The notes: generated by a model not told the origin, from the letters alone. Counted from the stretch's first letter, positions 53,480 to 56,236 are shown. The stretch: 64,000 nucleotides of DNA from Acidimicrobiia bacterium (GCA_041576165.1 JBFGLM010000004.1:32001-96000), one strand, 5' to 3'. Made by a program: numbers and translations.

Positions 53480-53533
53480 GGACCGGCACCATAGACGGCT
53501 CCTGCCACCACCCGGCTCCCGGGCCGGGCGCCA

Positions 53534-54460
53534 TCAGACCTCGGACGCGGGCAGAGCCACTCTGGCCCGGCGTTCCGCAAGTGACGAAACGGCCACCACT
53601 AACGCCGCCGATACGATGATGAGCACGATCGGAATGCCAACATCTCCGTGCGGCCGGCCGAGCACGGTTGCTCCGAGGCCCGCTTCGTCTCCCAAACCGT
53701 TCGGCCACGGCCATAGAATCCGAATCGATCCCAGCATCAGGCCGATCAGGGCGGCGGTCACCATGTCGTGGTGGCGTTGGAGGACCCGGTCGAGGAATTG
53801 CGAGAAGATCGCAAGGGAGACGACTGCCCCAAGGCCGAACACCGCCAACACGACGGCGTCGCGATCGTTCACGGCTCCGATGACCGGCTGGTACATGCCG
53901 ATCGACAGCAGGAGGAAGGAGCCACTGACTCCCGGCAGAATGAACGCGCAGATCGCCAGGGCCCCCGAGACGAAATACACCGGGAGCGCCGGATCGGAGG
54001 CCAGCGACGACTGGAATCCGAACACGAAGAACGCCACGACTCCCACCCCCCCGGCGACAACCGCATGCGTCGACTCGGGCGATCGAAGGATCCTCCAGGC
54101 CACGACGATGGTGCCCATGATGAGACCCAAGAACACGGCTGCCATTCGGATCGGTTGGTCGTGAAGCAGCCGTTCGATCACCCTGGCCAGCGTCAAAATC
54201 GCGGCGGCCGCCCCCGCGATCAGCGGCAGGAGAAACAGCCAGTCAACTGCGCGTAATCCTTCGAAGCCCCGCCGGATGTCGCCCTTGAGGAAAGCGGCCA
54301 GCGCTTTCGACCCTGTACTGATCGTGCCGACCAAACGCTGATAGATGCCGGTCACCAGGGCGACGGTGCCGCCCGATACGCCCGGCACCACGTCGGCCGA
54401 TCCCATCAGGAATCCCCGGACGGCCACTCCCGCTGCGTCTTTGAGCCGGTTGGCGAGCAT
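53534..54460 (-). CDS. DUF368 membrane protein (undecaprenyl-phosphate recycling family)
   Basis: MGSADVVPGVSGGT and ILPGVSGS repeats; GGAGG SD before ATG 54460. Confidence 0.88.
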   Translation of the reverse strand: MLANRLKDAAGVAVRGFLMGSADVVPGVSGGTVALVTGIYQRLVGTISTGSKALAAFLKGDIRRGFEGLRAVDWLFLLPLIAGAAAAILTLARVIERLLHDQPIRMAAVFLGLIMGTIVVAWRILRSPESTHAVVAGGVGVVAFFVFGFQSSLASDPALPVYFVSGALAICAFILPGVSGSFLLLSIGMYQPVIGAVNDRDAVVLAVFGLGAVVSLAIFSQFLDRVLQRHHDMVTAALIGLMLGSIRILWPWPNGLGDEAGLGATVLGRPHGDVGIPIVLIIVSAALVVAVSSLAERRARVALPASEV

Positions 54461-54567
54461 CAACACCTCCGCGGGTCGCGATGGCCGCTGCAACCAGAGC
54501 AGAGCGTGGTCATGATGGACCTCTGGGGCCATCCTTTCGCGCCCTGAGTGAAACTTGCTGAGCGTGC

Positions 54568-54596
54568 TTGACCCAATTTTGGAATGCAGTTAGCCT
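54568..54596 (+). promoter_or_regulatory. Housekeeping sigma promoter
   Basis: TTGACC-N17-TAGCCT. Confidence 0.7.
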
Positions 54597-54603
54597 TTGG
54601 ACT

Positions 54604-54763
54604 GTATCGGATCCTTCTTGGTTCCGGTACACCCCCCCAAACCAGCAAGGGGACGCGGGAACGGAAACCCTGGCGCCGTTGCCGGCTAACGCCCCCTTCG
54701 CGCTCTTCCATGAAGAGCAACGAGGCTCCGGTTCGACCCCCTTACCGGAGCCTCGTGGTTTTT
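54604..54763 (+). ncRNA. Candidate structured small RNA (~160 nt)
   Basis: Own promoter, four successive hairpins, single-stranded C7 tract, intrinsic terminator, no credible ORF. Confidence 0.65.
54720..54763 (+). terminator. Intrinsic terminator
   Basis: 13-bp perfect stem ACGAGGCTCCGGT/ACCGGAGCCTCGT followed by GGTTTTT. Confidence 0.8.
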
Positions 54764-54861
54764 AGCCCCATCCCAGGCCGTGCGTGGCGGTTCGCATCGT
54801 CATGATCTCGGCGGAGTGGTGGGGTCATCGCGCCGTCCCCGCGGTGGCGTCCGTGGCCGGC

Positions 54862-55095
54862 TCATAATGAGCCGGCCCGGACCGTGACCCGCTCCCCTCC
54901 GCCGCCCAAGGCGATCTGCGGGTTGTCGCCCCAGCGTGGACGTCCGAACAGGATGGCATGGGCCACTTCGATGGCCGGAATGTCATAGCTGCCCTCGGCG
55001 ACCCGGCGCGCCAGATGCGCCACCCGTCGTTCGCGCCAGGTCGTCGGGGCCTTTTCGCTATCCGGCTGCTCGTCTGCTCTCATCCGTTTCACCAC
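54862..55095 (-). CDS. FlgM-like anti-sigma28 small protein
   Basis: RERRVAHLARRVAEGSYDIPAIEVAHAIL resembles the FlgM C-terminal sigma-binding motif; start GTG 55095 or ATG 55083. Confidence 0.65.
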   Translation of the reverse strand: MVKRMRADEQPDSEKAPTTWRERRVAHLARRVAEGSYDIPAIEVAHAILFGRPRWGDNPQIALGGGGERVTVRAGSL

Positions 55096-55104
55096 TCTGG
55101 GTGG

Positions 55105-55132
55105 TTATCGACGGGTCAGCGGTCTAATTTGA
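55105..55132 (-). promoter_or_regulatory. Sigma28 (FliA/WhiG)-type promoter
   Basis: Minus strand TCAA-N16-GTCGATAA directly upstream of the FlgM-like ORF. Confidence 0.6.
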
Positions 55133-55165
55133 GCACGTATTACCACCGAACGTGGCTAATGCGCT

Positions 55166-56236
55166 TCATACCGAGAATCTGACGAGCACCGCGTCGCCGG
55201 GTCGCACGCGGTAGTCCTTCCCCTCGACCCTGATATGGCCCAGTTTCTTGGCGGCGTCCCAACCACCATCTGCAATGACGGTGTCAATCTGTGCCACTTC
55301 TGCCCGGATGAAACCCCGCTGCAGGTCGGAATGGACCTTGCCCGCGGCCTCCGGAGCAGTGGCGCCGGCCTCCACTGTCCAGGCATGCGCTTCCTTCGGT
55401 CCGAGCGTGTAGAACGTGATCAAACCCAGCGCCGCGTGGGTTGCCTGCACGATCCGCATGCGGGCTCCCTCTCCCAGACCGAACTCGGCAAACAACTCCT
55501 GGCGGTCGGCCGGGGCGAGTTCCGCCGCCTCCGCCTCCAGCCGGGCCGACAGCGCCACCACAGTGTCCCCCGCCGGGACGACCCGTTCGACGGCCTCGAG
55601 CAGCGATGCCGGGTCGTCGCCCTCATCGAAGTTGACCACCCACACGGCCGGTTTCAGGGTGAGCGGCGCGAGGTCGCGAAAGGCCTGGCGCTCCTGGTCG
55701 GACCACGAGTGTGCACGCAGGAGACTGCCTTCTTCGAGCAGCGCAGTCGCCCGCCCGACGGCGGCCGCGGCTGGTTTCTTGGACGGATCCGCCGTGGCTT
55801 CCTTGGCGATCCGCTCGCGGCGTCTTTCGAACACCTCGAAGTCGGCCAGCGTCAGCTCCACCAGAAGCTCTTCGGCCTGCGCCACCGGGTCGACCCCACC
55901 GACCTCGGGGGGAACCGATTCGTCGTGGAAGGCACGGAGAACCATCGCCAGCGCGTCCATCTCCCGCAGGCGTCCGATGAACTGCGTGCCAAGCCCCTCC
56001 CCCGCCTTGGCCACGGCTGGCAAGTCGAGGACTTCCAGGGTTGTGAAGACAGTCTTGGCCGAACCCTCAACCCGGGCTGCAGCCAGCAACATCTCATCCA
56101 CGACCTCGGCCACGCCGACGTTGGGCTCCGTCGTGGAGTACGGGTGAGGTGCGGTGGGTGCCAGCAAGCCGGTCAGCGCGTTGAAGAGGCTGGTCTTTCC
56201 GGTATTGGGGAACCCGACGATACCTATCCGTGCCAC
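55166..56236 (-). CDS. YchF/Obg-family ATPase (divergent) with TGS/DUF933 C-terminus
   Basis: GFPNTGKT, TTEPN, LITFYT, EAAGKVHSDLQRGFIRAEV, EGKDY. Confidence 0.88.
   Translation of the reverse strand: MARIGIVGFPNTGKTSLFNALTGLLAPTAPHPYSTTEPNVGVAEVVDEMLLAAARVEGSAKTVFTTLEVLDLPAVAKAGEGLGTQFIGRLREMDALAMVLRAFHDESVPPEVGGVDPVAQAEELLVELTLADFEVFERRRERIAKEATADPSKKPAAAAVGRATALLEEGSLLRAHSWSDQERQAFRDLAPLTLKPAVWVVNFDEGDDPASLLEAVERVVPAGDTVVALSARLEAEAAELAPADRQELFAEFGLGEGARMRIVQATHAALGLITFYTLGPKEAHAWTVEAGATAPEAAGKVHSDLQRGFIRAEVAQIDTVIADGGWDAAKKLGHIRVEGKDYRVRPGDAVLVRFSV

Follow-up and report, generated by a model that had tools for sequence, protein, structure and literature searches.

Hairpin loops rich in C that pair with G-rich sites in mRNAs are a principle shared by several bacterial regulatory RNAs, among them RsaE/RoxS, CcsR and RepG. 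sX13 of Xanthomonas has also been described as a C-rich-loop regulatory RNA. Ms1 and 6S are abundant structured small RNAs of Actinobacteria that bind RNA polymerase. The closest described system is 6C (RF01066), known as B11 or ncRv13660c in mycobacteria and as scr3558 in Streptomyces. 6C is described as having two hairpins with at least six C's in each loop and as usually lying 200-300 nt from chromosome-partitioning or pilus-assembly genes (PMC1950547), and in mycobacteria its C-rich loops are reported to base-pair, with no chaperone involved, to G-rich ribosome-binding sites such as those of panD and dnaB (PMC6486639).

Here we describe an RNA gene in a 64,000-nt stretch of Acidimicrobiia DNA, called the window below. 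Acidimicrobiia are abundant, mostly uncultured Actinomycetota, and in open-access papers and bioRxiv preprints we found no description of a small RNA of these bacteria, nor of 6C in them. A sequence-only reading of the window had proposed a stand-alone structured RNA gene on the plus strand whose layout fits neither 6C nor Ms1. Covariance models, covariation and promoter-like hexamers at a fixed position bear out the RNA gene, and the Rfam models of 6C and Ms1 agree that it belongs to neither family. Rfam 15, run in gathering mode over the whole 64 kb, returned no match. What is new is the RNA family; the principle, C-rich-loop pairing, is a known one.

Like 6C, the RNA described here is a small RNA of Actinomycetota, and both have long GC-rich hairpins, C-rich loops and a run of U's after the last hairpin. 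The two layouts differ, in that 6C consists of two conserved hairpins over 75 model positions whereas the present RNA has four hairpins (P1 to P4) in about 160 nt, the most conserved loop here being CCCUGGC rather than a C run. Unlike 6C, the present RNA also has a C-rich single-stranded linker. Two loops with at least six C's each occur in 1 of 45 full-length members of the family, and in the window the P4 loop has five C's and the P2 loop three. The genes that accompany the present RNA (ychF, a DUF368 gene and a small ORF) are absent within 1.5 kb of each of six true 6C loci. The record titles of the carriers name Acidimicrobiia or Actinomycetota, as would be expected from the range of 6C in Actinobacteria.

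Model scores point to a faint resemblance. The best permissive Rfam match between 54400 and 54950 was to 6C (23.1 bits, E 0.85, cut-off 47), and it aligned P4 alone, to the first 6C hairpin; the best RF01066 match elsewhere in the genome reached 19.3 bits. Conversely, the top match of R2, a covariance model of the present RNA, overlapped the 6C RNA in six of six true 6C loci (14.1-23.5 bits), with the last U-tailed, C-loop hairpin of 6C aligned to P4. We rejected membership in 6C on the sub-cut-off score, the single member with two C-run loops and the different neighbours. The mismatch in layout seen by the sequence-only reading holds as far as membership goes, while the likeness, visible in weak reciprocal model scores of 14-23.5 bits, had been underrated. 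The RNA may be a very distant relative of 6C or a convergent design.

The distributions of the two RNAs were compared with the same pipeline. A search for canonical 6C in 61 relatives of the window's genome was negative, a result that is not proof of absence because the control, Corynebacterium glutamicum, fell below the cut-off and the pipeline can miss true 6C. Across the phylum, 6C exceeded its cut-off in 6 of 151 genomes, none of them Acidimicrobiia, and 6C and the present RNA occurred together in no genome searched. As for other known RNAs, Ms1 and 6S were absent from the ten weak Rfam matches at E up to 10 between 54400 and 54950; the present RNA differs from both in having four separate hairpins and no long central-bubble duplex, and falls below the Rfam threshold. 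It has no sequence or structural relation and no Rfam match to sX13, RsaE/RoxS, CcsR or RepG, which belong to other phyla. Rfam searches in E-value mode of 20 related loci, together with two loci that share a P4-like hairpin (L053 and L075, below), gave sub-threshold hairpin matches and an unrelated glycine riboswitch.

Locus layout and transcription

The TTGACC-N17-TAGCCT arrangement, the four hairpins, the C-rich tracts and the U-tailed last hairpin that had been read from the sequence were all recovered in place (Table 1). The observation that no gene on the same strand follows the RNA was likewise correct, both of the next downstream genes being on the minus strand.

Table 1. Features of the RNA locus, numbered from the first letter of the window.
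Feature	Position	Strand	Basis
-35-like hexamer TTGACC	54568-54573	+	read from sequence
-10-like hexamer TAGCCT, TAnnnT type, 17-nt spacer after TTGACC	54591-54596	+	read from sequence
Whole RNA, covariance-model match, about 160 nt	54602-54764	+	models R1 and R2
P1, 5' hairpin, loop UUCUU in the window	54604-54630	+	fold
C-rich unpaired linker, ACCCCCCCAAACCA	54631-54644	+	sequence, fold
P2, long bulged hairpin	54645-54701	+	fold
P2 apical loop, AAACCCUGGCG	54665-54675	+	fold
P3, short hairpin GCUCUUC-CAU-GAAGAGC	54702-54718	+	fold
P4, GC-rich hairpin of 12-13 bp, loop UCGACCCCCUU	54720-54756	+	fold
U5 tail, with UGG between P4 and the U's	54759-54763	+	read from sequence
ORF overlapping the RNA, first	54568-54765	+	
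ORF overlapping the RNA, second	54584-54805	+	
DUF368 (VCA0040-like) gene, divergent neighbour	53534-54532	-	Pfam PF04018, E 1.3e-68
77-aa ORF, convergent syntenic neighbour outside the RNA	54862-55095	-	FlgM-like, below threshold
ychF, syntenic neighbour	55166-56236	-	Pfam YchF-GTPase_C and MMR_HSR1

TAGCCT has three of the six letters of TATAAT, and a simple consensus scanner called no promoter and no terminator within 53500-56000. It missed the terminator because the 11-nt loop and a U run beginning 3 nt past the stem break its rules, and with the scanner silent the evidence for both elements comes from comparison of family members. In 39 of 45 members the model match begins 1-12 nt after the end of a TAnnnT hexamer, and by a scripted rule TTGnnn stands 17-18 nt upstream of the -10-like hexamer in 28 of the 45. 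Inspection by eye added three more, in which TTGACA, an 18-nt spacer and TAGGAT lie slightly upstream, the model match having shortened P1. At the other end, 26 of the 45 carry a U-rich tail (four or more U's within 8 nt past P4) and 19 carry fewer U's. We infer that the RNA is transcribed from its own promoter and terminated at P4, with the first transcribed nucleotide likely near 54603-54604, and that P4 likely serves both as terminator and as pairing site.

The minimum-free-energy fold of 54604-54765 on the plus strand consists of exactly four hairpins at -78.9 kcal/mol (z -6.28 against 200 dinucleotide shuffles, none of them as stable), and the opposite strand gives z -3.85. The window's own fold also pairs AAACC of the linker with the 3' tail, a helix absent from the family consensus. 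When 18 homologues were each folded singly, all 18 formed the same four hairpins.

The same stretch of plus strand holds the two overlapping ORFs of Table 1, and frames without stops are found there in 45 of 45 homologues, which is uninformative since frames are often open in short C-rich sequence. GC content by codon position is 0.57/0.64/0.64 in one ORF and 0.59/0.56/0.59 in the other, compared with about 0.7/0.47/0.79 in real genes, so the third-position signature of coding sequence is missing; neither ORF has a Pfam match, close relatives differ by 1-2 nt in loop length, and stem changes are compensatory. That the locus encodes a small protein from either frame is thus extremely unlikely.

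Two marine metatranscriptomes from two studies each contain one contig on the RNA, 90-95% alike to the window. One contig of 151 nt covers 54627-54762; the other, of 278 nt, covers 54662-54762 and runs on for 178 unlike letters past P4. Neither metatranscriptome covers the flanks of the RNA, which is uninformative in contigs that come from relatives 90-95% alike. Metatranscriptome contigs carry no strand, ends or level, these derive from relatives of this organism, and DNA can occur in RNA libraries; we take the two contigs as a weak hint of transcription.

Covariation and distribution of the family

RNAalifold applied to a plain MAFFT alignment of 46 sequences recovered P4 alone, because the variable P1 and P2 sequences were misaligned, and we therefore built a covariance model with a hand-made structure. 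This model, R1, was made from 18 sequences of one clade that excludes the window, its structure written by hand from single folds. On the window R1 scored 67.0 bits (E 9e-15) on the plus strand, over the interval in Table 1, and 26.5 bits on the minus strand, where the score arises from the palindromic P4; R2 gave 106 bits.

Alignment A5 comprises 45 full-length model matches fitted to the model, and most of its rows were gathered with a pattern that fixes the P4 core. Standard base pairs fill 94.2% of A5 cells, compared with 78.4% when partners were shuffled and 42-47% when they were slid, and the covariation score was 0.407, where shuffles gave 0.145 and slid partners 0.05-0.09. On every measure the observed value exceeded that of each shuffle. 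Changes on both sides occur in 34 of the 44 base pairs among the 45 members: in 11 of 11 pairs of P1, in 13 of 13 of P2 and in 6 of 7 of P3, where 99.4% of cells pair. Covariation in P4 is seen at the four outer pairs (for instance G-C in 28 members and A-U in 17), and the eight core pairs are invariant in A5 but were fixed by the search pattern in most rows. The check for homologues and covariation proposed with the original reading has yielded a family within one order.

Two checks lean less on the model than A5 does. The MAFFT-only alignment A3 of 18 members had 93% of cells paired against 42-51% with slid partners, and showed double changes in 10 pairs where shuffles gave 3.1; and in L085, which only the model had picked up, the P4 core has changed in a compensatory manner. 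G-U pairs are common in A5, and the plus strand is therefore the RNA strand. Two A5 rows, L004 and L005, come from genomes flagged as unpublished (G032 and G043), and their RNA sequences are identical to the named public records L073 and L067. These genomes also underlie the counts for family f5 and two rows each of A1, A2, A4 and A5; no conclusion depends on them. On these alignments the family is well supported by covariation and ready for curation.

GC-rich DNA generally folds well, and even the minus strand has a z of -3.85, as would be seen if the structure were a product of chance or a palindrome of the DNA with no function as RNA. Against this stand covariation across at least seven families and strand-specific scores; moreover P4 is unique in the genome, where one other short palindrome matches its core pattern. 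We regard this explanation as hardly credible and hold that the locus very probably encodes a real, independently transcribed structured RNA. A P3-like hairpin elsewhere in the genome (C1) lies within a coding region and was set aside as chance.

The RNA is single-copy in its genome. BLASTN found matches in 14 of 61 related genomes, in five families of the same order, one of them of 22 nt and probably due to chance. In the first alignment of these the last hairpin and CCCTGGC were invariant and P3 was conserved; weaker matches revealed a short version reduced to a P2-like hairpin and P4. A scan for the P4 pattern in one genome per species (185,579 species) returned 65 stretches, 62 of them in metagenome-assembled genomes whose record titles read Acidimicrobiia, Acidimicrobiaceae, Actinomycetota, Actinomycetes or just 'bacterium'. 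Judged by title, every carrier among these records is a metagenome-assembled genome. A pattern match in Streptomyces was rejected, as it looks like coding sequence and scored 14.1 bits with R1. After removal of identical copies 69 loci remained, of which 67 belong to the family; the P4-like hairpin is all that L053 and L075 (Micrococcales genome) have in common with it.

Hairpins almost identical in sequence to P4 in other Actinomycetota lie at L053:380-540 (+), in L075 (-) and at L100:1580-1625 (+), L053 and L100 being unclassified. L053 and L075 have a different upstream layout that includes another C-rich-loop hairpin, with no Rfam match, and possibly represent a further C-rich small RNA family.

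Of 151 genomes of the order, 49 had an R2 match, as did 37 of the 110 with completeness of 90% or more and contamination of 5% or less. The RNA is near-universal in four families, f7 (17 of 18 genomes), f12 (16 of 18), f6 (6 of 7) and f5 (2 of 2, both unpublished). Matches were sparser in f4 (5 of 19), f3 (1 of 2) and f8 (1 of 7), and there was none in f2 (0 of 19), f9 (0 of 8), f10 (0 of 18), f11 (0 of 14) or the sampled genomes of the window's own family, f1 (0 of 18). A fuller search of f1 found the RNA in the window's genome and 2 of 28 others, in three of seven genera. At the level of the class, 12 of 151 genomes matched, all from the same order and none from another; at the level of the phylum there was one marginal match of 30.9 bits, and otherwise the window's genome only. 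Judged by these searches, the family does not extend beyond a single order of Acidimicrobiia.

Several genomes of one family carry two copies. Separately, L044 and L049 are full-length copies on different contigs of a single metagenome-assembled genome, each beside a FlgM-like ORF, and reflect either a duplication or a mixed bin. P3 is absent from short forms and, in two members (L034 and L065), tandemly duplicated. In L077, L050, L052 and L056 an insertion of 30-55 nt stands in place of the P2 apical loop, and CCCUGGC is absent or found elsewhere.

Genomic neighbourhood and paralogues

Neighbours were counted by tblastn at 67 non-redundant loci, most with 500 nt per side only; orientations assigned from GC3 alone conflicted with tblastn in places and were dropped. 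ychF adjoins the RNA at 35 of the 67 loci, in three orientations, and such turning of the gene relative to neighbours that it retains favours a transcription unit of its own. It lies upstream on the same strand at 16 and downstream on the same strand at 2, and ychF and/or the FlgM-like ORF lies downstream and convergent at 29. The 77-aa ORF, whose match to Pfam PF04316 (FlgM, anti-sigma-28) scores 23.8 bits against a cut-off of 25, was found downstream on the opposite strand at 18 loci in several families. None of the three neighbours is within reach at 20 loci, 12 of which are short forms. In G003, a genome without the RNA, the DUF368 gene directly follows ychF, and the RNA, alone or together with the small ORF, is therefore a dispensable insert at that position. 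A filter-free model search of five ychF loci from genomes without the RNA gave at best 11.4 bits.

This arrangement bears on the idea that the element acts in cis, serving ychF or the small ORF as a 3' UTR or bidirectional terminator, or a downstream gene as a leader or attenuator. A palindromic P4 between convergent genes (29 of 67 loci), an RNA just downstream of ychF on the same strand (16 loci) or upstream of it (2), the placement of one family's short paralogue directly upstream of an IF-2B-family gene, and the metatranscriptome contig that continues past P4 are all in keeping with such a role. A terminator, however, has no need of P1 to P3, which covary on one strand only, and the promoter hexamers are kept at a fixed distance from P1. 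No neighbour or orientation is constant across loci, and at L015 the downstream glycine riboswitch has its own start, 75 nt away. We therefore consider action in cis improbable for the family as a whole and favour a stand-alone RNA.

Family f12 carries a syntenic copy between the DUF368 gene and the small ORF, with a changed P4 loop. Its genomes also have a second, shorter copy (L087-L091) made up of P2 and P4, with its own TATAAT and without P1, linker or P3, which is flanked by an MscS-type channel gene on one side and, 35-60 nt downstream, by an IF-2B-family gene; in one example the copy spans L090:1501-1647 and the IF-2B-family gene 1691-2539. This short paralogue may have arisen from the small RNA and act as a cis leader.

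Further sequence elements recur around the RNA. The glycine riboswitch mentioned above (RF00504, 66.8 bits; L015:613-700, +) lies about 75 nt downstream on the same strand, in one clade. TGTGGATAA, which reads as the E. coli DnaA-box consensus on the opposite strand, stands about 75 nt upstream of the RNA start, between ychF and the RNA promoter, at 7 of 7 loci of one clade (L015, L021, L023, L024, L032, L054 and L079), and may be a regulator site. Another conserved word, GAGTATGGC(A), occurs 60-110 nt upstream of the -35 of the RNA in several families (L011-L013, L019, L020, L066, L005, L028 and L059); its reverse complement resembles an extended -10 of the divergent gene. ychF itself is seemingly leaderless in L006-L008, where TACAGT precedes the ATG by 8 nt and nothing between the two resembles an SD.

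Target search and candidate partners

The unpaired parts of the family are 56-60% C and 1-9% G, and three conserved C-rich unpaired regions stand out: the linker, the P2 loop and the P4 loop. The linker, commonly CCCCAACCCCA, is 60% C and 6% G and contains CCCC in 38 of 45 members; the window's own has seven C's. CCCUGGC lies within the P2 apical loop in 37 of 45 members. All 45 have CCCC in the P4 loop, in part because the search pattern required it, and the fuller CCCCCUU, imposed by the pattern in most rows, is yet kept in 12 of 16 matches made by the model alone. The P1 loop has CCCC in 20 of 45 members, where the window instead has UUCUU.

With 6C as a guide, we propose that a housekeeping-type promoter of its own (TTGACC, 17 nt, TAGCCT) would drive a stand-alone RNA of about 160 nt that ends at the P4 hairpin and U tail. 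P1 to P4 would display the C-rich stretches, namely the linker, CCCUGGC of the P2 loop, CCCCCUU of the P4 loop and, in many relatives, the P1 loop, and these stretches would bind G-rich parts of mRNAs, many of them SD-like, by pairing in trans and so lower translation or stability, a mode of action demonstrated for actinobacterial 6C. By this analogy the RNA is probably a stand-alone small RNA that works like 6C while forming a separate family. The step on which the mechanism turns, pairing between C-rich and G-rich segments, is one to which we give about an even chance.

The sequence-only reading had suggested SD sequences as possible targets, and here prediction did not discriminate: in duplex energies over 4414 start regions the real C-rich segments equalled their reversed controls (P4 loop mean -10.93 vs -10.69). 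The complement of the CCCUGGC loop of P2 was not enriched near starts (33 genes vs 31 expected). AAGGGGG occurs in 17 start regions where 5.1 are expected, an excess that is no evidence of targeting because start-codon choice based on SD favours SD-like words and confounds the count. The start regions of ychF, the DUF368 gene and the small ORF held no conserved complement to the loops.

The P4 stem and the P2 loop are conserved beyond the needs of seed pairing, and a protein or ribosome partner therefore fits them as well. The RNA could, for instance, be a sponge for or a cofactor of a KH-type C-binding protein, or act in the context of YchF and the ribosome. In accord with a main partner other than mRNAs, CCCUGGC (37 of 45) and the P4 stem are near-invariant across families whose YchF proteins are 43-65% identical, adjacency to ychF outlasts three changes of orientation, and the scans of start regions found no mRNA target signal. 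Weighing against it, common neighbours are explicable by inheritance alone, and the RNA is missing from many genomes in which ychF is kept (0 of 19, 0 of 18 and 0 of 14 in three families). Since the RNA is missing where ychF is kept, and ychF abuts the DUF368 gene in G003, an obligatory partnership with YchF is unlikely. Overall, a real small RNA whose main partner is a protein or the ribosome is a minority possibility, which we think unlikely.

A more specific and still less likely proposal is a fixed partner in translation. YchF is a ribosome-associated ATPase, and the P4 loop CCCCCUU presumably resembles the 3' end of 16S rRNA. The RNA would then be an anti-SD mimic, or a ribosome- or YchF-associated RNA, that alters the ratio of SD-led to leaderless translation, and in one lineage a shortened copy may have become the cis leader of an IF-2B-family gene. 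This proposal is made because the P4 loop is invariant and ychF is kept through three rearrangements, and we hold it as doubtful.

We thus return to a stand-alone small RNA, probably working like 6C, as the best explanation. Such an RNA would extend 6C-style, chaperone-independent riboregulation to a deep branch that seemingly lacks 6C. Its family-by-family distribution, together with the two copies found in one family, offers natural contrasts for finding its targets, and the RNA would be of more interest still if its partner proved to be other than an mRNA.
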